Assembly (NCBI GenBank): GCA_004524445.1
Contig: SDNP01000013.1
Span: forward strand, 12,326-76,325
DNA: 64,000 nucleotides
DNA from: Candidatus Thorarchaeota archaeon
Lineage (GTDB): Archaea; Asgardarchaeota; Thorarchaeia; Thorarchaeales; Thorarchaeaceae
Direction of reading: 5' to 3'
Position numbers and translations under genes: made by a program. Under the pieces are notes generated by a model that was not told where the DNA came from, made no database searches, and was given only the letters and a program-made list of their open reading frames with translations. Of this stretch, positions 8,269 to 63,528 are shown piece by piece (within the stretch, counting starts at the first letter, position 1; the number at the start of each line of letters is the position of its first letter).

Positions 8269-8640
8269 CTATTTCCTAAGTCCTGTAATTTTGTCGACGA
8301 CATCCTCTACAAGGTCTTTGGCTTTTCCTTCAACAACAATTGAAACTGCAGCAGTTGGCCTCTCAATGCCTACTGCGCCGCCCAAATCCTGTTTGCTGGG
8401 CACATAGATGTAAGGTGCTTTCTTATCATCACATAATCCAGGCAGGAACATTGTTATCTCGGGGGGGTCTACATCCTCAGCTATCACAACGATTTTGGCA
8501 TTACCTCTTTCAATGCTCTTTGTTGTCTCGTTAATCCCTTTCTTGACTCTGCCAGTATCTTTGGCAATTTCTAGGGCTTGGAGTGCTTTCTTTTGAAGCT
8601 CCTCGGGAGCTTCCCATTCTACAAAACTTGGTTTTGGCAT
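8269..8640 (-). CDS. rpl7ae: 50S ribosomal protein L7Ae
   Basis: KKGINETTKSIERG, IAEDVDPPEI, YVPSKQDLG. Confidence 0.97.
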   Translation of the reverse strand: MPKPSFVEWEAPEELQKKALQALEIAKDTGRVKKGINETTKSIERGNAKIVVIAEDVDPPEITMFLPGLCDDKKAPYIYVPSKQDLGGAVGIERPTAAVSIVVEGKAKDLVEDVVDKITGLRK

Positions 8641-8647
8641 CACTGTC

Positions 8648-8672
8648 TACCTCAGTTTCTACTTCATTGGTA
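8648..8672 (-). promoter_or_regulatory. K-turn in the rpl7ae 5' UTR overlapping the SD
   Basis: UACC-AAU-GA-AGU-AGAA-ACU-GA-GGUA: C-stem, 3-nt bulge, tandem G.A/A.G pairs. Confidence 0.75.
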
Positions 8673-8774
8673 CTCAGCATTTACCTGAATACGAACTTGT
8701 CGCAACCATGGGGTTGCGTCCTTTTGCGCCTAGTCTAGAATTCTTTTAAAACTGTCGAACTGACAGAATGAATC

Positions 8775-9776
8775 CTAGTACCCTACCTTCTCAATGGCTA
8801 ACAGCATGTCCTCGTGCTTTGCATGGACATGCTTGAGGACAGAATACCTATTGCGCTTATTCATGATTCTAATCGCATGATCGATATCATCGAGGAATAA
8901 CTCCCTTGTTAAATCCATCTCATCAAAGGTAACAGGCATTTCTTCTCTCTTCATGAATCGCAGAATTTCTGTAGGGGAATATTTTCCATAGTCAGTCTGC
9001 TCCATAAAATGGAGACTAAATGGAGTTGCGAATGCAACTTGTATTCCATGGAGATTATGATTACGTCTGTCCATGGCGTGAGAGATTGCATGTTCAGTTC
9101 CAGAGCAAGGTCGTGAACTACCGAATTCACTCATTGCAATACCCGCATCAATTACCGACCCAACGAGTACCTCCAGTGAGCTGTTAGTTAATACCGCCTC
9201 CAAGGCAGCCTCAACGGTCGCATATACATCAGAATCATACTCCTCGTCAGCGTAATCTCTTGCAAGGCGCCACTCTGCAAGACTTGAAGCTTTACTAATG
9301 ACGTCTCCCAATCCTGAGAGTCGAAGATGAGGTGGAGCATCGTCCATGATGTCCAAATCCGCCAGAATCAATTTGGGTCGTTTACATTTCTCTGAATAGC
9401 GATATCCGTTATGCATCACTGATGCCACTTCACTTGCTATGCCATCATGAGATGCTGCGGTGGGGATTGAAATCCACTCGATGTGGGAATCTCTCGCCAT
9501 AATTTTTGCTTGATCAATACTCCTCCCTCCTCCAAAGCCCAAAATAATATCTGCATCAATCATACTCTTGGTATTCTTAGCGATTCTATCATTAATGATT
9601 AACCACTCAAGCTTCTCACCTACAATTGATGAAACCAATTTGCTGTACTTCTCGTAAAGCAGTAAATCAGTCACACAAATTGGTTTGTCATACCCTTCTA
9701 GAATGCCATCAAGTTTCTCTATCGCCTCCCTTGCAACGATTACTTTACTGGAACAATTGGAGGTCATGAGTTGCAA
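8775..9776 (-). CDS. egsA: sn-glycerol-1-phosphate dehydrogenase (NAD(P)+)
   Basis: GFGGGRSID, PTAASHDGIAS, SSRPCSGTEHAISHA, LHGIQV. Confidence 0.9.
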   Translation of the reverse strand: MQLMTSNCSSKVIVAREAIEKLDGILEGYDKPICVTDLLLYEKYSKLVSSIVGEKLEWLIINDRIAKNTKSMIDADIILGFGGGRSIDQAKIMARDSHIEWISIPTAASHDGIASEVASVMHNGYRYSEKCKRPKLILADLDIMDDAPPHLRLSGLGDVISKASSLAEWRLARDYADEEYDSDVYATVEAALEAVLTNSSLEVLVGSVIDAGIAMSEFGSSRPCSGTEHAISHAMDRRNHNLHGIQVAFATPFSLHFMEQTDYGKYSPTEILRFMKREEMPVTFDEMDLTRELFLDDIDHAIRIMNKRNRYSVLKHVHAKHEDMLLAIEKVGY

Positions 9777-9964
9777 TCCTTCTAATCATCATCACTGTCT
9801 GCAGTGAATTGTTAGCAGACGTGGTCGTTATTAACATTGACCAATAGAAGCCTTCAGAAACATATTACCATGGTAGGAAACAGAAAGCGAGTGTTACCTC
9901 TGAAATACTCTAGCTGATATGTCTGGAATGTTCCCTTTCCTATATACGAGAGGAGTCAACACAT

Positions 9965-35222: not shown

Positions 35223-35783
35223 TCACCAGGGGTTATCTTTTAGCCCTAGAAGAAAGCTGATTGCATTTGAGAACCAATGAACTCCCAAAGTCACACCAAC
35301 AAGAATGATGACATAAATCGCAGCTGGTTGGATAATAGGTGATGCAAAGATAAGGGACATAATGATGAAACCAATTTGATCCAAAACCGGTGCTGGATTA
35401 CCACTCTTCACATCAATTCTTCTTTTCACAAATGATCCAATAAGGTCGCCCATAAGAGCGCCTAAGGAAAGAAGAAACCCCGTAATAGGGCCAATGAAGA
35501 GCAGGCTTTCCATCTCTGCAGTGACAACAACGTACTCCGTCAAGACTGGAAAAATAAGGGGCGCAATGCTGCTCTGAATAAAACCTGTTAGGGTCCCCAA
35601 GAGAACCCCAACTACAAAACCACGGATAGTCTTGCCATCGCCTAAAAGCCTATGCCCGTCACGAAATAGTGTGCCTCTGTCAATGGGCATACCCCCGCCA
35701 AAGATGACTGGTGTAGAATTTGCAATCCATGCTGGAAGGGCGAACCAAATGGCAATTTCCAGCAGAGCGATTTCTTCATACAT
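35223..35783 (-). CDS. carS: CDP-archaeol synthase
   Basis: LPAWIANSTPV, DGKTIRG, GDLIGSFVKRR, LDQ. Confidence 0.93.
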   Translation of the reverse strand: MYEEIALLEIAIWFALPAWIANSTPVIFGGGMPIDRGTLFRDGHRLLGDGKTIRGFVVGVLLGTLTGFIQSSIAPLIFPVLTEYVVVTAEMESLLFIGPITGFLLSLGALMGDLIGSFVKRRIDVKSGNPAPVLDQIGFIIMSLIFASPIIQPAAIYVIILVGVTLGVHWFSNAISFLLGLKDNPW

Positions 35784-55091: not shown

Positions 55092-55433
55092 CTATTCCTT
55101 TTTCCTGGACTTGAACAGTTGGTAAACTGCGGCTCCAGCAACAATCGCTCCTACACCAACTATTGCTCCCAGAACTCGAGGCGCATCCTCCACCAGATGT
55201 TCAATCGGATGTGTCAAGGGATTCTGTTTATCTCTATGAATCTCCCAGTGATCTCCAAAGTCATAGGCATGTAGATTCATACAGGCACATCGATATTGAG
55301 CAATCATCCCCCACCTTGGTTCACCGAGAATAGTCGGTTTGAAACAAGACGGCAGCACGGGAATCTCCTCTTTTGAAAATCTCTTTTTCACACTGTGGGG
55401 AATATCATTAAAGATTTCGTGAAGGTCTATCAT
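55092..55433 (-). CDS. Conserved-looking hypothetical protein with C-terminal TM
   Basis: HRDKQNP...PIEHLVEDAP then hydrophobic tail and basic end. Confidence 0.65.
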   Translation of the reverse strand: MIDLHEIFNDIPHSVKKRFSKEEIPVLPSCFKPTILGEPRWGMIAQYRCACMNLHAYDFGDHWEIHRDKQNPLTHPIEHLVEDAPRVLGAIVGVGAIVAGAAVYQLFKSRKKE

Positions 55434-55700: not shown

Positions 55701-57347
55701 ATGCATATGAGTGAGATACTGAAGACGAACAAATACGTTCTGACAGTCTTTGTCCTGACCATAGTAATAGCTGGAATGACCTTTGGGAACCTTCCGGGGC
55801 CAGCGACGCCCACTACGGTTCAGACAATTGACGGCATAACCTATGATTTCAATGACTACAAATCAATAAATCACGAACAATTAGCACTTTTCAACTATCT
55901 CAACACAATCGTTAGTAGCGATTATCAAGGCTATGGCGAGTGGGATGGTTGGTATGCTGAGCATTATCACGGACTGCATCACTATGTCTTAGCTTTCATG
56001 GACTATGCAGTTTCATCCCTCTTCGAAACCACACCTGGATACCGTACTGATTATTATCGTGAGTTCGCCTATGATCTCATCAAGAAGATGAACACAACAG
56101 AGGAGGAATGGGGAAACAGCAGCATTGAATGGAAGGAATGGACCCACCCAGAATATAATTACGTAGATTATTACCATCCCAATGACCCAGACGATCCTGA
56201 TGCAATCTATACAGGGGGTTGGCGTGGTCCTGCCAATATCATGTGGACGGGGCACTTCGCGCTTATGGAGAGTCTCTATGAACGCAATTTCAATACTGGC
56301 GAGTTTAAGGATGAGATTAATTGGTTCGTGAATGACTGGAACAATTCTCTTCTCACAGACGGCCATGGAAACCCGAAAGATGGAGGAATCTGGGGGACCG
56401 GACTCATCCCCTGTGAACCATATATTGTATTCTCCCAATGCAACTCAATCCCGATTGTGACAACAGAACTCTATGATAGTCTCTATGGTACGCAGTACAT
56501 TGAAGGGGGTATGTGGGACTATGGCCTCAACTTCATTAACACCATCATGCAGGACCGATATGACCTGTTTATGGATGGCTATTATGTAGATAGGCCAACA
56601 TCCTCTTACTATGATACCGATCGTCTTCCTCAAGAAATACCTGGCCCTGCTATATCTCTCTACGCAGATGATGGGCGCTGTAAGGTATCATCCTATAACA
56701 ACGGTTGGGCACTCGCTTTTCTGCAACATATTCAACCCGAGGAAACATTGCATGACTATCCAATCTTCTTAGAGCATTTCATGAAAGATATATCCGGAGA
56801 TATGGCTTACATGATGGACACATACAACAACCCCGATGGCTTTGGTACCTATGACATTCTTGGTACTATGTTCACTATGCACCTTGCCAACCAGATGGGG
56901 GATTATGTGACTAGAAACCGACTTGTGAATTTCCTCTATAGCTCGTTCAACAAAGTATGGTCGGAAGATGGACGCGAACTGCATTACGACACAATGGACC
57001 TCGAACCGTTTCTTCAGCCAGTTATGGCATTTGGTTCCATATGGGCACATGCTCCAGTGACAATAATGGATTTGGCTGATGCTCGCCATGCAGGATTCTG
57101 GGAATTTCCATATATCAGCGAGGCAGATGACAGCAAAATCTGGGTCTATCAAGCTCAATGGGATCCTGAAAAGGAGGGATTCATCCTCAATATACAAGTA
57201 GACCAACCAGCAACTCTCGTGTTTAGTAATTTTGAATCCAGTCCAACAGCATATGCTAATGGCGTGGCTATCGGCGAATTGCTACAATTAGACTCTGGAC
57301 ACCAGCTTTCTCTAGAAGAAGGCAGCTACCTCTTGGTGATAAAGTAG
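55701..57347 (+). CDS. Secreted linalool dehydratase/isomerase (LinD)-family protein
   Basis: Signal/anchor helix; NIMWTGH, IPCEPYIVFSQCNS, LYDSLYGTQY, SSYNNGWALAF match LinD motifs. Confidence 0.8.
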   Translation: MHMSEILKTNKYVLTVFVLTIVIAGMTFGNLPGPATPTTVQTIDGITYDFNDYKSINHEQLALFNYLNTIVSSDYQGYGEWDGWYAEHYHGLHHYVLAFMDYAVSSLFETTPGYRTDYYREFAYDLIKKMNTTEEEWGNSSIEWKEWTHPEYNYVDYYHPNDPDDPDAIYTGGWRGPANIMWTGHFALMESLYERNFNTGEFKDEINWFVNDWNNSLLTDGHGNPKDGGIWGTGLIPCEPYIVFSQCNSIPIVTTELYDSLYGTQYIEGGMWDYGLNFINTIMQDRYDLFMDGYYVDRPTSSYYDTDRLPQEIPGPAISLYADDGRCKVSSYNNGWALAFLQHIQPEETLHDYPIFLEHFMKDISGDMAYMMDTYNNPDGFGTYDILGTMFTMHLANQMGDYVTRNRLVNFLYSSFNKVWSEDGRELHYDTMDLEPFLQPVMAFGSIWAHAPVTIMDLADARHAGFWEFPYISEADDSKIWVYQAQWDPEKEGFILNIQVDQPATLVFSNFESSPTAYANGVAIGELLQLDSGHQLSLEEGSYLLVIK

Positions 57348-57359
57348 GAGGACAAAAAG

Positions 57360-57989
57360 ATGAAGGAAAATACCAATGATTCCCAACGCATCGAGTCTGA
57401 AGAGTCGGACATAGACTTGTTTGCCACTCTACAAATTGATGGCATGGAAATGTTTGCATGGACCATTGTCTATGGTTTCTTGGGTGCTGTCTTGTATATG
57501 CTGGTATCTCTTATTCCAATGCCATATACCATGGTCTCCCTGTTCAAGTTCGGCCTTCTGCCCTCTATTTCAATAGTAGCGATCACGGGTGCAATACGTG
57601 GTCCCCTCGCGGGATTTCTGTCGGGTTATATAGGAGTCTTAATCTACGACTGGATATCTTATGGTCTGGTAGTAACCCTAACACTGCCGGCCATGGCTTT
57701 TGGTGTAACAGGTTTTGTTGTAGGTATGGCATCGTACCGTTTTGACACAGGACGTTCTCTGGCAAAACTATCGGTGCTATCAATGATTGGGTTTGTCTTC
57801 ACAACCCTCTTGGTAGTTGTCATTGGACTCATAGTGGAAGGCTATGCTACGATGGCAGCAATTGGGTTTGTCATGTTGCCAATGTTGACACTGGGATTAC
57901 CCTCGGCATTTCTGTTGCCACCTATTCTTGCAGCTGGCTGGCAAGTCATCACATCAAAAATCATACCATCAGCCATTCCTGAGAGGTGA
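57360..57989 (+). CDS. ECF transporter S-component
   Basis: GAIRGPLAGFLSGYIG..IYD, about 5-6 TMs; 12 nt after the LinD-like gene, own GGAGG SD. Confidence 0.8.
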   Translation: MKENTNDSQRIESEESDIDLFATLQIDGMEMFAWTIVYGFLGAVLYMLVSLIPMPYTMVSLFKFGLLPSISIVAITGAIRGPLAGFLSGYIGVLIYDWISYGLVVTLTLPAMAFGVTGFVVGMASYRFDTGRSLAKLSVLSMIGFVFTTLLVVVIGLIVEGYATMAAIGFVMLPMLTLGLPSAFLLPPILAAGWQVITSKIIPSAIPER

Positions 57990-58036
57990 TTCAAGGGGGC
58001 CATTGGGCCCCCGCATCTATTTTTGCAAATGAAATA

Positions 58037-58462
58037 CTATTTATCTTGGCACTCTGGGCAGATACCCTCTATATTGAATGTACTATTTTCGGGAAGAAAG
58101 TTTCTTTCCTCCGCAATTTGAGTGACCAGAGCCTTGATACTTTGAGATTCGTGGTCTATGATTTTTCCACATTTCTTGCAGACTAAGTGAACATGAAGAT
58201 TGATAGTAGGATCGTATCTTATCCCACCCTCGGTCGTTGCGAGTTCTTGAGCCAAACCAATATGTGAAAATAGCTGCAATGCCTTGTAGACGGTGGCTAG
58301 GCTGATTGAAGGATCCTGTTCCTGAGCGTACTCATAAATCTCTGCCACTGTGGGATGGGACCCTGCATTCCACAAGGCCTCATAAATCAAAATTCTCTGA
58401 TAGGTGGCCCTATGGCCGCTATCCCTAATTGTTTCTGCTATCTCTTCTCTATCTACAGCCAT
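58037..58462 (-). CDS. Fur/PerR-family transcriptional repressor
   Basis: RATYQR, HPTVAEIY, SLATVYKAL, HVHLVCKKCG, CPEC. Confidence 0.93.
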   Translation of the reverse strand: MAVDREEIAETIRDSGHRATYQRILIYEALWNAGSHPTVAEIYEYAQEQDPSISLATVYKALQLFSHIGLAQELATTEGGIRYDPTINLHVHLVCKKCGKIIDHESQSIKALVTQIAEERNFLPENSTFNIEGICPECQDK

Positions 58463-58514
58463 TGCAGGTTGTTGATGGTGCCCAAACAAATAAAGATATT
58501 CTTTACGGAAAGCA

Positions 58515-58530
58515 ATTATCTATAGATAAT
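58515..58530. promoter_or_regulatory. Putative Fur/PerR operator
   Basis: Perfect AT-rich palindrome ATTATCTA-TAGATAAT between the divergent fur/perR and peroxiredoxin genes. Confidence 0.6.
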
Positions 58531-58669
58531 AAGACTTAAATAATAGTGATTATTGATAAATAACAAGTTAACAAACTTGAAGAACCTACAATTTGACGGC
58601 ATGAAAATGGGAGTGGGGGACCAAGTTTGTTGAAATCAAGATAAAATGTCTATCAAGGAGAATAGAATT

Positions 58670-59326
58670 ATGGAAGAAGCACAAACCGTAGAAAAGAGAA
58701 TGCTATTAATTGGTGAGGAGGTTCCAGATTTTGAAACGGAAACCACTCATGGCCCAATCAAGTTTAGCGAATGGGCAAAGGACAGCTGGGTAATCCTGTT
58801 TTCACATCCCGCTGATTTCACTCCGGTCTGCACCACGGAATTCATGGCATTTCAAGACATCTACCCGGAATTGAAGAAGCGAAATGTGAAGCTAATTGGA
58901 TTGAGCATTGACAGCCTTTATTCGCATATCTCATGGGTCAGAACAATAAAAGAGAAGCTGGGCAAAGACATCGAGTTTCCAATTATTGAAGATCTCAGCA
59001 TGGACGTAGCCAGGAAATATGGGATGATCCATCCAGCCGAGAATGCTACAGCTGCAGTCCGAGCAGTCTTTTTCATTGATCCGGAATTCAAACTCAGGGC
59101 ATTAATCTACTACCCACTTAGCAATGGGCGAAATATGCAGGAATTCCTCAGAATCATTGACGCATTCCAGACAAGCGACAAACACAAAGTAGCGACACCG
59201 GCAAACTGGCAGCCTGGAGACGCAGTTATTGTTCCGCCGCCCAAGACCCAAGCAGATGCAGAGAAGCGACTCAAAGAAGGTTATGACTGCGCAGATTGGT
59301 TCTTCTGCAAGAAGACAATCGAGTAA
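58670..59326 (+). CDS. Peroxiredoxin (Prx6/archaeal type)
   Basis: FSHPADFTPVCTTEF, YYP..NGRN, TPANW, DWFFC. Confidence 0.95.
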   Translation: MEEAQTVEKRMLLIGEEVPDFETETTHGPIKFSEWAKDSWVILFSHPADFTPVCTTEFMAFQDIYPELKKRNVKLIGLSIDSLYSHISWVRTIKEKLGKDIEFPIIEDLSMDVARKYGMIHPAENATAAVRAVFFIDPEFKLRALIYYPLSNGRNMQEFLRIIDAFQTSDKHKVATPANWQPGDAVIVPPPKTQADAEKRLKEGYDCADWFFCKKTIE

Positions 59327-59346
59327 ATATTTGAATACAAAATCCC

Positions 59347-59390
59347 GAGGAACGTGGGCTCTTTCCACGATCCTCTTTCTACTTTCTTTT
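59347..59390 (+). terminator. Hairpin + U-rich terminator after the peroxiredoxin
   Basis: GAGG-AA-CGTGG-N7-CCACG-AT-CCTC followed by TTTTACTTTCTTTT. Confidence 0.5.
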
Positions 59391-59516
59391 GATTCAATTT
59401 GAATATACAGAGCTAGTTCGACAAATGCCTAAATGGGCATCGGCGCTCTCAACATATTTATAGCCTCCTCTTGACCCTGTGAGAGTCGACCTTTATTCAT
59501 AGGAGGAATCAGAAAA

Positions 59517-60323
59517 ATGGTATTCAATCCACTCGGGCCTGATTTACAGGTATTATGGGATATAGTCGCCTTTTTCATCTCGTTCATCTTGGTATTACTT
59601 GTTGTTCAAATAAACGGAGCTATTGAGAAGAGCGGTAAGTTATCGGCAGATGTCACCAGAAAGATTGTACACATCTTTGCAGCCCCAGTGTTCTTAGGAT
59701 CTTGGATTCTTTTCTCCGGCGGAGTGTTTAGTAGGTGGATAGCAGCAACTGTACCACTGATGTTTGTTTTACTCTTTGTTGCTATTGGAACCGGGAAAAT
59801 GGTCAATGAGGCATTTGTTGGCTCGATGTCACGTACTGGTGATCCTAGAGAGTTGTTAGGTGGAACGCTGTACTATTCAATCATGCTAGTAGTTGTCACC
59901 CTCTTCTGGTTCTACGCTCCCGTTACTGGAATCGGTAATGCTGTTCCCACAGCATTCATTATATTTGGATGCGTGGCTGGAGGAGATGGTCTTGCAGATG
60001 TGATAGGCCGTAAATATGGGGGCACGCAAAAGTTTGGAATTGGCGGAGCTGAACGCACAGTGGTTGGCTCTGTAGCAATGTTCGTGGGCTCATTCCTGTT
60101 TAGTTATACCTTAGTCGCAATATTCTCCATCGAAGTACCCTCTTTCAATATTGTTGCATTACTTATCCCCATCTTGATACTAAGTTTAGTGGCTACATTC
60201 ACTGAAGCCCTCTCTCCGAAAGGACTCGATAATTGGACAGTGCCAATCTCAGTCATTATCGTGATTGTGTTATTCACCTTTTTGATTCCGAGTTGGTGGC
60301 CCTTTCCCCTCCTAACAATATAA
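59517..60323 (+). CDS. CTP-dependent phytol/farnesol/dolichol kinase-family membrane protein
   Basis: TRKIVHI, SRTGDPRELLGGTLYY, GGDGLADVIGRKYG, GLDNWTVP (VTE5/DGK1/SEC59 superfamily). Confidence 0.85.
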   Translation: MVFNPLGPDLQVLWDIVAFFISFILVLLVVQINGAIEKSGKLSADVTRKIVHIFAAPVFLGSWILFSGGVFSRWIAATVPLMFVLLFVAIGTGKMVNEAFVGSMSRTGDPRELLGGTLYYSIMLVVVTLFWFYAPVTGIGNAVPTAFIIFGCVAGGDGLADVIGRKYGGTQKFGIGGAERTVVGSVAMFVGSFLFSYTLVAIFSIEVPSFNIVALLIPILILSLVATFTEALSPKGLDNWTVPISVIIVIVLFTFLIPSWWPFPLLTI

Positions 60324-60337
60324 GCTGGTGAACGCCC

Positions 60338-61156
60338 ATGAGCAATGACTTAACTGTGCTCAAATTGGGCGGTTCTCTGCTTACAGACAAATCCAAGCCT
60401 TATACTCCTAGAATGGCAGTCATGAAGTCTGTTTGTGAAGAGATACGCCAGTGCATAAATGATGAATTACTGGGTTCATTGATACTGATTCAGGGAGTCG
60501 GTTCATTCGGGCATCCTCCAGTTCTCGAACACCATCTTCACATGGGATTCAAAGGTCCCAAGCAATTACTGCCTCTTTCTGACACACAATCCACTGTAGG
60601 AAAGTTTCGGGCAATGCTGGTTGAACAACTCCAACAAGCGGATATTCCGGTTTGTCTTATGTACCCATCATCGATGGTGGTGGCAGAGAGAATGAAAATG
60701 ACTCGATACTTCTTTGAACCGCTGCGTGGTTTCTTATCCATTGGAATGGTCCCATTATTGGGAGGCGATATTCTGATTGATTCAGTGATGGGATTCACCG
60801 TGGGAAGTGGTGACCAACTGGCTGTCCTCATAGCCAAGGAACTCAAAGCTAAGAAGATTATTTTTGCTTCAGATGTCGCGGGCATATTCGACTCAGATCC
60901 CAAGACCAATCCCGATGCCGAACTCTATTCTGAGATAGATATTGGAGAGGTTGAGAGGACCGTAGAAGAGATGGGCAAGTCAACCGTAATTGATGCAAGT
61001 GGCGCAATGAAAGGAAAACTGAAGTCTCTCATCCCTGCAAGACCCTTGCTTGAGGCGGGCCTTGAAGTTTCGATACTCTCGATGATGGAATCTGGGAACC
61101 TAGCAGACTATCTGAAGGGAAACACATCTACATCAACCCAGATTGTCAGTCGATAA
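60338..61156 (+). CDS. ipk: Isopentenyl phosphate kinase
   Basis: VLKLGGSLLTDK, GVGSFGH, VPLLGGD, SGDQ, DASGAMKGK. Confidence 0.88.
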   Translation: MSNDLTVLKLGGSLLTDKSKPYTPRMAVMKSVCEEIRQCINDELLGSLILIQGVGSFGHPPVLEHHLHMGFKGPKQLLPLSDTQSTVGKFRAMLVEQLQQADIPVCLMYPSSMVVAERMKMTRYFFEPLRGFLSIGMVPLLGGDILIDSVMGFTVGSGDQLAVLIAKELKAKKIIFASDVAGIFDSDPKTNPDAELYSEIDIGEVERTVEEMGKSTVIDASGAMKGKLKSLIPARPLLEAGLEVSILSMMESGNLADYLKGNTSTSTQIVSR

Positions 61157-62475: not shown

Positions 62476-63528
62476 ATGCAGTTCCGTGACCGTGATATCA
62501 TCAGAGACTACTCTAATCGCATCTATGTGGTTCTAGGTCATATTCAGCCTGATTCCCAAGTCATTTGTTTTCTGAAGTACGTTCCCAGTCCAAATGGCAA
62601 ATGGAAACAGGGTAATGAGTCCTTTGAGAGAGTGTTTTGGGGAGGAGTGCAATCAGTTGACACGGGAAAAGATTTGGTGCCCCCAGACTTCATCAAGAAT
62701 GATATGCATTTTGGAACAGAACTCCTAGAAGTTCCTGTGTCTATGATAAAGAAACATTATCAACCGGAGGAAAGATTGGCGTCTATATTGGCTGCAGAGT
62801 TCAATGATCAACTAGAACAATCCGTGAAGGCAACTGCTATCGCAATCAATCAGTCCCTTGAGATTGGATTAGAATCTCTGGGTGTTGCAGGCAGCATTCT
62901 CTGGCAGGCCCATAATACTAGTTTCTCAGATATCAACATGAACGTATACGGTTTTGAGAATTCCAAAAAGCTACAGGAAAGATTGGGTCGGGTTGCAGAA
63001 GCCAGTCCAGATATCCGTACCCGAAGAAAGAATGAATGGAAAAATGCGATATCCAGAGTAATTCAGAGAATCCCGTGCTTGTCACACTCTGATTTGGAAC
63101 TGCTCTTTTCTAGGCGAAAGGCAATTTTTCATAAAGACAGGTGCATAGGTATTTCTCCCATTTTGTATCCCAATGAGTCGCCAATTCCATACGATTCAGA
63201 GATATACAAGACAGTCTCACCTGATCCAATCCATGTAAAGATGTATATCGAAAAAGACGAGCACGGCATATTTCACCCAGCATTATATCTAGGTGAGTCA
63301 GAGCCAGTGACGATGGCTGATAATGGGCAGATTACTCGCATAATGGTATACGATGGAGCTTTCGGAGGAGTTATCCGAAAAGGAGATTCAGTCGAGGTAT
63401 CAGGCACGCTTCAAGAAGTTCAAGCAGTGAAGGAAGGCAAAATCACGGGAAATCAAAAGAGATTCTACCAGCTGATGGTAGGTACAGTTGATGGTGCTGG
63501 AAAGGAGTTCATTCGGTTAAGTGAATGA
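62476..63528 (+). CDS. Predicted archaeal nucleotidyltransferase-domain protein
   Basis: FRDRD, FLKYVP, LGVAGSIL...SDINMNVYG, C-terminal OB-like GDSVEVSG. Confidence 0.7.
   Translation: MQFRDRDIIRDYSNRIYVVLGHIQPDSQVICFLKYVPSPNGKWKQGNESFERVFWGGVQSVDTGKDLVPPDFIKNDMHFGTELLEVPVSMIKKHYQPEERLASILAAEFNDQLEQSVKATAIAINQSLEIGLESLGVAGSILWQAHNTSFSDINMNVYGFENSKKLQERLGRVAEASPDIRTRRKNEWKNAISRVIQRIPCLSHSDLELLFSRRKAIFHKDRCIGISPILYPNESPIPYDSEIYKTVSPDPIHVKMYIEKDEHGIFHPALYLGESEPVTMADNGQITRIMVYDGAFGGVIRKGDSVEVSGTLQEVQAVKEGKITGNQKRFYQLMVGTVDGAGKEFIRLSE

Follow-up and report, generated by a model that had tools for sequence, protein, structure and literature searches.

The locus described here lies in a 64,000-nucleotide stretch of the genome of a Candidatus Thorarchaeota archaeon (hereafter the window; GenBank assembly GCA_004524445.1, contig SDNP01000013.1, our contig C30:12326-76325), the assembly comprising 2.79 Mb in 64 contigs with 90% completeness. 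Between positions 55701 and 61156 of the window there are four plus-strand genes in two tight pairs. The first pair consists of a gene for a 548-residue protein of the LinD/Ldi family (55701-57347, + strand; open reading frame (ORF) coordinates and Pfam PF18566) and, after a gap of 12 nt, a gene for a 209-residue membrane protein resembling the S component of energy-coupling factor (ECF) transporters (57360-57989, +). The second pair consists of PolK, a putative VTE5/FOLK-type membrane prenol kinase of 268 residues with about eight helices (59517-60323, +), and, after 14 nt, IPK2, a 272-residue paralogue of isopentenyl phosphate kinase (IPK; 60338-61156, +). A Fur/PerR-family regulator (58037-58489, - strand; Pfam FUR, 93 bits) and a 1-Cys-type peroxiredoxin (Prx; 58646-59326, +; AhpC-TSA and 1-cysPrx_C domains, NF009668 314 bits) separate the pairs. 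The original prediction, made from the sequence letters, had read the four genes as one salvage pathway for prenyl alcohols; its gene positions and both gaps were borne out by the ORF coordinates, as was the division into two pairs by perR and prx; the four genes do share one strand, and perR lies on the minus strand. As argued below, the two pairs are very probably independent of each other, and it is fairly probable that PolK and IPK2 carry out a two-step phosphorylation of a free prenol.

IPK2 scores 161 bits against the NF040647 equivalog (cut-off 120), in agreement with the IPK identity assigned earlier, and its residues K9, G11, H59, D144 and D159 are invariant. With canonical archaeal IPK (NF040647; 3k4o, 3ll9, 3lkk, 8u0k) it has the fold family and the catalytic Lys/His/Asp in common; unlike canonical IPK, it belongs to a separate clade that is always found beside PolK, carries a signature of its own, and is 29% identical to the canonical IPK of the same genome (IPK1; contig C33, adjoining rpS10, 203 bits). 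HMG-CoA reductase is present as well, so the mevalonate route is intact, and since both this enzyme and the canonical IPK are encoded, IPK2 is an extra copy. The earlier proposal that the genes feed lipid synthesis without mevalonate is therefore not needed.

The linkage of the two kinase genes is strict. Twenty loci were fetched with IPK2 homologues as the starting point, six Asgard families being represented, and in all 20 PolK directly precedes IPK2 on the same strand. A maximum-likelihood tree of 71 IPK rows joined all 29 PolK-adjacent IPKs in one clade (UFBoot 99, SH-aLRT 97) and left the 41 non-adjacent ones outside; the rows had been picked by similarity to IPK2 or IPK1, with a few non-adjacent loci entering twice, and adjacency is an observation independent of that choice. 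The tree indicates that IPK2 is not orthologous with the IPK of the mevalonate pathway. Additionally, one protein of the representative library, P0420 (487 residues), is a natural fusion, with an IPK at residues 2-246 (NF040647, 176 bits) and a match to the PolK profile at residues 255-479 (E 1e-40); in the tree its IPK half branches off, with a long branch, as the sister group of the clade linked to PolK (88/81). PolK and IPK2 are an invariant pair in which the membrane kinase has a dedicated IPK paralogue. Adjacency, IPK clade and fusion together lend strong comparative support to the part of the original prediction that had an alcohol converted to its monophosphate and then to its diphosphate. 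Full-text literature searches, the coverage of which is incomplete, returned neither a description of a PolK-IPK gene pair nor one of archaeal LinD homologues.

PolK itself matched nothing in Pfam, also with the threshold relaxed to E 10, nor in NCBIfam or the PDB sequences; the latter were searched both with the single sequence and with a 17-sequence profile. This includes the Pfam model CTP_transf_1 (PF01148), unmatched at E 10; because plant relatives tested are also unmatched by it, and only the distant relatives P0420 and P0422 have sub-threshold matches, the model does not cover the branch to which PolK belongs. A search of 1.8 billion representatives with the profile of 17 homologues yielded 4520 relatives, and among the named relatives that were looked up a plant phytol kinase is the closest: the Marchantia polymorpha protein, named 'phytol kinase' by annotation, is 33% identical over 253 residues (E 7e-35; E 1e-45 with the profile). 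The AlphaFold2 (AF2) model of PolK has a pLDDT of 90.7, and the C-terminal half carries the motif GGDGLADxIGRKYG. The top four Foldseek matches are all TmCdsA (4q2e/4q2g) with a probability of 0.69-0.90, but with E values of 0.04-0.16 and a TM-score of 0.32. VIA-align gave Z 7.7 for the C-terminal half against CarS (5guf) and Z 5.8 against CdsA, values within the noise for helical proteins, and a wide VIA-align search with the PolK model returned mostly designed helical bundles, the CarS and CdsA rows alone being meaningful, and weak. By its sequence we place PolK in the VTE5/FOLK-type prenol kinase family, and the 33% identity to the Marchantia enzyme bears out the VTE5-family kinase proposed earlier.

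The nearest known counterparts are VTE5 (phytol kinase) and VTE6 (phytyl-phosphate kinase) of plants and cyanobacteria, together with FOLK (farnesol kinase). By sequence PolK belongs to the family of the first kinase, and the logic from alcohol through monophosphate to diphosphate is the one proposed here for PolK and IPK2; the difference lies in the second kinase, which is the DUF92 membrane kinase VTE6 in plants and a soluble member of the IPK family, with the amino-acid-kinase fold, in our case. A DUF92 gene is found elsewhere in the genome: three more PolK-family paralogues (E 2e-28, 8e-18 and 9e-11 to the PolK profile) and a DUF92/VTE6-family membrane protein (224 bits) are encoded at C20:58-885 (+), C53:26834-27562 (+), C2:3236-3991 (-) and C1:1435-2376 (+), none adjacent to another. 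Because these genes exist, PolK need not be the housekeeping dolichol kinase. Such a role, with PolK phosphorylating dolichol or polyprenol for the lipid carrier of N-glycosylation and IPK2 being a second mevalonate-pathway IPK that lies nearby, would agree with the name 'dolichol kinase' that JGI gives to many homologues, with the GT4 glycosyltransferase gene that follows IPK2 as the next gene, and with the existence of Heimdall genomes that have PolK homologues without an IPK. However, a dolichol kinase has no use for a second one, whereas the IPK partner here is constant, falls in a clade to itself and in one case shares a chain with PolK; moreover, the closest named relative looked up is a phytol kinase, and the three paralogues could serve as dolichol kinase, so that we consider this role improbable.

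Regarding the length of the prenol chain, the residues of IPK2 give mixed indications. The alkyl pocket of Thermoplasma IPK is lined at positions R1-R4 by Y70, V73, V130 and I140 (PMC8500459). Mapped by hand through the 8u0k alignment, without a structure, these positions are occupied by L80, T83, I145 and V155 in IPK2 and by I/I/V/I in IPK1. R4 is Val in 93% of the PolK-linked clade and Ile in all other IPKs. Near the pocket the clade is marked by M87V (one helical turn past R2), aromatic142G (before the catalytic Gly-Asp) and I155V; G54V, A62V and G119M are changes from small to larger residues, and N91R is a further one. This distinct active-site signature would be compatible with a different, possibly longer, substrate. 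The pocket residues of IPK2 are not clearly smaller than those of IPK1, and a long-chain substrate is therefore a proposal. The pair might instead salvage the C5 alcohols isoprenol and prenol to isopentenyl and dimethylallyl diphosphate (IPP/DMAPP), mirroring in nature the engineered isopentenol utilisation pathway, and the preference of the IPK family for chains of 4-6 atoms (PMC8500459) would suit this, as would four pocket positions that are not drastically reduced. Against a C5 substrate speak the membrane kinase, an enzyme of about eight helices from the phytol/farnesol kinase family whose known substrates are lipophilic, the bulky-to-small changes by the pocket (M87V, I155V, aromatic142G), and the canonical IPK, which already serves C5 compounds; C5 salvage is, in our view, as improbable as the dolichol kinase role.

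Several loci elsewhere show other arrangements of these kinase genes. The Heimdallarchaeia G065/G400 and G067/G404, with closed or near-closed chromosomes, have the LinD-like and S genes and two PolK homologues each, with no match to IPK2 of the window at E <= 1e-10 and no amino-acid-kinase gene near PolK, which is thus on its own in them; a replacement of IPK2 by DUF92/VTE6 or another amino-acid kinase beside PolK was considered for Heimdall genomes and dropped, neither being near PolK there. At locus L075 (G095:C33) a PolK fragment and a second full-length PolK-like gene stand beside IPK2 (8556-8870 and 9193-9951, - strand), the latter with GGANFAS in place of GGDGLAD; given this degenerate motif, it may be an inactivated duplicate. 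Long frames containing an IPK in families f14 and f28 were checked as possible PolK fusions and are not. In f28 a canonical IPK (residues 25-279) sits in a frame of 654 residues (L092, G298:C23, 2126-4090, -; likewise in G299 and G300), the C-terminal part of which resembles FMN-dependent TIM-barrel enzymes and is similar to the NMO protein of the window at 507-576; a fusion of IPK with a type-2 IPP isomerase is one possibility. In f14 (L091, L093, L094) canonical IPKs lie in stop-to-stop frames of 449-452 residues with about 187 extra N-terminal residues, which could reflect a fusion or simply an upstream region free of stop codons.

The LinD-like protein of the first pair matches the Pfam family Ldi (PF18566) with 70 bits against a cut-off of 26.1, and the PDB chains of LinD (5g1u/5hlr) with E 2e-10 in phmmer, as expected from the LinD-family identity predicted earlier; on sequence grounds, it is a true relative of LinD/Ldi. 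Its NIMWTGH aligns with NIMYKGH of LinD, containing Met124 and His128 of 5hlr, and CEPYIVFSQCNS aligns with CEPDNYFVQCNS, containing the catalytic Cys170 and Cys179 of 5hlr, with which C238 and C247 of the archaeal protein align; the aligned motifs read NIMxxGH and CEPx5QCN. N179, I180, M181, H185, C238, P240 and C247 are invariant in 16 archaeal members with identity down to 28%. Met124 and His128 of 5hlr, the equivalents of M181 and H185, we take to have a catalytic role in LinD. LinD is a pentamer with its active site at the subunit interface, and acts on myrcene, linalool and geraniol. Its Cys170 and Cys179 are catalytic, reduced cysteines (PMC6600392). Conservation of the Cys/Cys/His/Met site points to acid/base chemistry of the LinD type, with a diene or an allylic or tertiary alcohol as the substrate. 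The archaeal protein has three cysteines in all (238, 247 and 327), of which two are conserved; the capping disulfide Cys48-Cys101 of LinD (PMC6600392) is not kept, the position of Cys48 being taken by Gly79 in a part of the alignment of low confidence.

The protein is built of an N-terminal anchor or signal, a catalytic domain of the (alpha/alpha)6 type and an extra C-terminal tail of about 90 residues. It has one hydrophobic segment, at about residues 12-28, and because this single N-terminal segment is preceded by two lysines, the catalytic domain is predicted to face outward. The earlier description as a secreted protein stands with regard to export, and is better read as N-terminally membrane-anchored or exported. 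LinD of Castellaniella defragrans (PF18566; 5g1u, 5hlr, 5i3t) is of the same family, with equivalents of its catalytic Cys/Cys and Met/His invariant here, and is likewise exported outside the cytoplasmic membrane. In contrast to the soluble LinD, the archaeal protein is predicted to be membrane-anchored, does without the Cys48-Cys101 disulfide, is about 170 residues longer with a beta-rich C-terminal tail, shows low similarity to LinD (the phmmer E value above) and is encoded beside an S-component gene in every testable locus. A further relative of LinD is the membrane-bound Lis of Thauera linaloolentis, with a catalytic domain of about 500 residues (PMC4791888), which the archaeal protein resembles in size and membrane attachment no less than it does LinD. 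Lis has 644 residues and four helices and is 20% identical to LinD at E 3e-10 (PMC4791888), so that the archaeal protein is similarly distant from LinD; Lis is likened here by its published description. The two differ in topology, since Lis has four N-terminal membrane helices of its own and a catalytic domain predicted to be cytoplasmic, whereas the archaeal protein has one anchor, a domain predicted to lie outside the cell, and a six-helix partner encoded by its own gene.

This partner scores 24.8 bits against Pfam PF07155, the model of riboflavin-type S components, just under the cut-off of 26.7, and about half of its homologues carry a precomputed PF07155 match. Its AF2 model, based on an alignment of 75 sequences, has a pLDDT of 87.6, and the best 26 Foldseek matches of the model are all ECF S components (probability 0.57-1.0, TM-score 0.36-0.67), ThiT, RibU, FolT, PanT and BioY among them. 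The six-helix S-component fold of the 209-residue protein is thus confirmed at the level of the predicted model, and with it the identity given in the original prediction. There are three CbiQ/EcfT genes in the genome, each beside ABC ATPase genes (contigs C33, C24 and C1), and a shared ECF energising module is therefore available. In this the protein is like the group II S components (ThiT, RibU, FolT, PanT, BioY), which have the same predicted fold and whose genes are separate from the ECF AA'T modules; it differs from them in a very divergent sequence, which leaves it below the Pfam cut-off, and in being tied genetically to an exported enzyme. To our knowledge, a genetic tie of this kind has not been described.

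The LinD-like neighbourhoods examined were 30 from the phylum and 54 loci from a species-representative collection, the latter found with two archaeal-type peptide patterns and hence from a search unsuited to bacterial LinD-like genes. In all 54 testable loci, and in L060 in addition, the LinD-like gene is immediately followed by the S gene on the same strand, including relatives of 32-36% identity in Heimdall/Hodarchaeia and Atabeyarchaeia; the cassette also occurs outside Asgard archaea, in two metagenome-assembled genomes (MAGs) of Methanomethylicia. The LinD-like and S genes are an invariant two-gene cassette. Because the partner is invariant, this argues for an S component that binds, and probably takes up, the substrate or product of the LinD-like enzyme. 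Tandem duplicates of the cassette occur in L042 (G366) and L064 (G377), 50-62% identical to the window protein, and in L042 Prx and PerR stand between the two copies. In the Heimdall/Hodarchaeia loci L141, L142 and L145 the cassette is followed on the same strand by an ORF of 152-156 residues without a family, a 398-residue MacB_PCD/FtsX permease and an ABC ATPase, which may form an alternative partner system of the LinD-like enzyme in these lineages.

That the substrate of this cassette is of isoprenoid type can be proposed tentatively at best. The competing idea is that the LinD-like enzyme does not act on isoprenoids and either processes, and with the S component imports, some other micronutrient or precursor, or acts on a component of the cell surface or membrane. 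Known S components do bind vitamins and precursors, the capping disulfide of LinD is absent, residues at the subunit interface could not be confirmed, and in other lineages the neighbours have no relation to isoprenoids, being MacB/FtsX-type ABC systems, dehydrogenases and permeases. Nevertheless, the LinD-specific Met/His/Cys/Cys residues are invariant even at the lowest identities, and acyclic terpene alcohols are the substrates of LinD and Lis, to which characterisation within the family is confined (PMC6600392, PMC4791888); a substrate other than an isoprenoid therefore appears to us somewhat unlikely.

The remaining question is whether the two pairs act together. In the family to which the window belongs (85 genomes) the LinD-like gene is present in 45 and IPK2, taken as present when its best E was below 1e-50, in 61; counted by hand, 33 genomes have both, 12 the LinD-like gene only, 28 IPK2 only and 12 neither. 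IPK2 is thus found in 73% of LinD-positive and in 70% of LinD-negative genomes, and these counts come from MAGs, in which absences are soft and related genomes are not independent. A genome of the same genus, G386 (94% complete), has the order NMO-orf113-PerR-Prx-PolK-IPK2-GT4-orf350 at its locus L077, with 74-94% protein identity and without the LinD-like and S genes. When L077 was compared with the window by blastn, collinearity broke off at about 55440 and set in again at 58036, with 165 nt in place of the 2.6-kb segment 55441-58035 (no strand) that carries the cassette, i.e. a clean 2.6-kb indel. Conversely, ten fetched Thorarchaeota loci pass from the cassette, with or without PerR/Prx, straight to GT4/orf350 with no kinases there, the kinase pair being elsewhere in some of these genomes and not found in others. 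Only 16 of 55 loci have PolK no more than 6 kb away from the cassette, and in the loci from Heimdall/Hodarchaeia, Atabeyarchaeia and Methanomethylicia the two pairs are never adjacent.

These data bear directly on the single pathway of the original prediction, in which, in Thorarchaeota, the LinD-like enzyme would make a primary prenol outside the cell, the S component would import it, and PolK and IPK2 would phosphorylate it twice. The chemistry is coherent, since LinD and Lis turn tertiary allylic alcohols into primary ones and back (PMC4791888, PMC6600392), and the pairs are neighbours in 16 of the 33 family genomes that hold both, being directly contiguous on one strand, without PerR/Prx, in L036, L042, L050 and L064; some functional hand-over in Thorarchaeota is possible on account of this adjacency and of the four contiguous loci. 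Within the family, however, adjacency may be inherited gene order, the near-equal frequencies of IPK2 show no co-occurrence, 12 LinD-positive genomes do without IPK2, and G386 keeps the kinase pair alone. When linkage in relatives was followed up, as the original prediction had suggested, none was conserved between the two pairs for the most part: they adjoin in about half of the Thorarchaeota that have both and in none of the loci examined outside Thorarchaeota. Apparently separate transcription signals, described next, also speak against one pathway, which we hold to be quite unlikely, if not quite as improbable as the two alternatives for the kinases. What had been observed at the locus was confirmed, and the integrated pathway is only partly supported, since the link that would make one pathway of the two pairs does not stand.

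Between the convergent S-component and perR genes there is a GC-rich 7-bp hairpin followed by T5 (57995-58012, no strand; folding energy -19.8 kcal/mol, z -2.0), which looks like a terminator. The kinase pair has putative upstream signals of its own at 59454-59506 (+), where we read directly from the letters a TATA-like TTTATA at about 59458 and a candidate ribosome-binding site, GGAGG at 59502, 11-15 nt before the ATG of PolK. Contigs from salt-lake metatranscriptomes of two studies, 95-100% identical, cover parts of all six genes, which is weak evidence of expression; coming from RNA libraries, they give neither strand, nor level, nor operon structure. Parts of the stretch are left uncovered by them and none clearly bridges a gene junction, the best case (X2 record 12) having 28 letters inside the S gene.

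In our explanation, the region would consist of two independent two-gene units, apparently with their own transcription signals, set in a conserved Thorarchaeota backbone (NMO ... PerR, Prx ... GT4, orf350). In the kinase unit (59517-61156) we infer that PolK phosphorylates a free isoprenoid alcohol, probably with cytidine triphosphate (CTP); a C15-C20 prenol that dissolves in the membrane is the likeliest substrate (for instance geranylgeraniol, farnesol or phytol), and IPK2 would add the second phosphate, giving a prenyl diphosphate usable by prenyltransferases. The LinD-like and S genes (55701-57989) would be an accessory cassette, with a hydratase-isomerase of the LinD type (Cys/Cys/His/Met) anchored on the outer face of the membrane and acting on an allylic or tertiary alcohol or a diene, while the S component would bind what this enzyme consumes or releases and might pair up with one of the three free ECF energising modules; the direction of transport and any hand-over from cassette to kinases we likewise infer. 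Taken as a whole, this explanation is slightly favoured.

Several points weigh against it. PolK matches no Pfam or NCBIfam model and its match to the CdsA/CarS fold is moderate (E 0.04; Z 5.8-7.7), and roles among the PolK paralogues and the DUF92/VTE6 gene could be divided differently. The fusion is one protein on one 7.2-kb contig, where an artefact of gene calling or a frameshift is possible. At the four pocket positions known from the literature IPK2 shows no clear reduction in residue size, so that a C5 alcohol is possible. Regarding independence, the absences were counted in incomplete MAGs, and the adjacency in 16 of 33 genomes and the four contiguous loci have to be set against it; in the metatranscriptome contigs, DNA carry-over is possible.

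The re-phosphorylation of free prenols is known in bacteria, plants, animals and archaea and was called 'the missing pathway' in a review of 2022 (PMC9782597), since genes for it had come almost exclusively from photosynthetic organisms and VTE6 was the sole second kinase identified (PMC9782597); a prenol kinase of Plasmodium was identified in 2024 (PMC10849223). For archaea, Sulfolobus work of 1996, as cited in two reviews (PMC9385802, PMC9782597), reported two successive kinase activities that take a free C20 prenol to its diphosphate, the same conversion as proposed here; these kinases are known as activities only, no genes being given for them in the two reviews. It is conceivable, and we put it forward with reserve, that IPK2 is the long-missing polyprenyl-phosphate kinase, that with PolK it encodes a route from farnesol, geranylgeraniol or phytol to the diphosphate, and that, separately, the cassette contains the first ECF S component reserved for what its partner ecto-enzyme produces. 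If true, the IPK family would be a candidate enzyme type for the second kinase of animals and parasites, which has yet to be identified there, and a prenol kinase always beside its own IPK paralogue, once fused to it, makes this a testable candidate. PolK and IPK2 would then parallel in nature the isopentenol utilisation pathway built by engineering, and they suggest that these Asgard archaea of sediments and salt lakes can draw on recycled or scavenged isoprenoid alcohols in making their ether lipids. The LinD-like gene and its partner would extend a tiny, biotechnologically prized family of alkene-hydrating enzymes into archaea, with an unusual coupling of enzyme and transporter.

As for the surroundings, base composition is uniform across the region, and the closest homologues of its proteins are all from Thorarchaeota MAGs. 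PerR and Prx are backbone genes that are part of neither pair, both being kept in G386, which is without the cassette. The flanking genes orf113 (55092-55433, -) and orf350 (62476-63528, +) are conserved Thorarchaeota backbone genes that matched no Pfam or NCBIfam family, and orf350 is syntenic with GT4 in nearly all loci fetched. Elsewhere in the window, CarS (CDP-archaeol synthase; 35223-35783, -; Pfam 166 bits) is the sole PF01148-type match of the genome.

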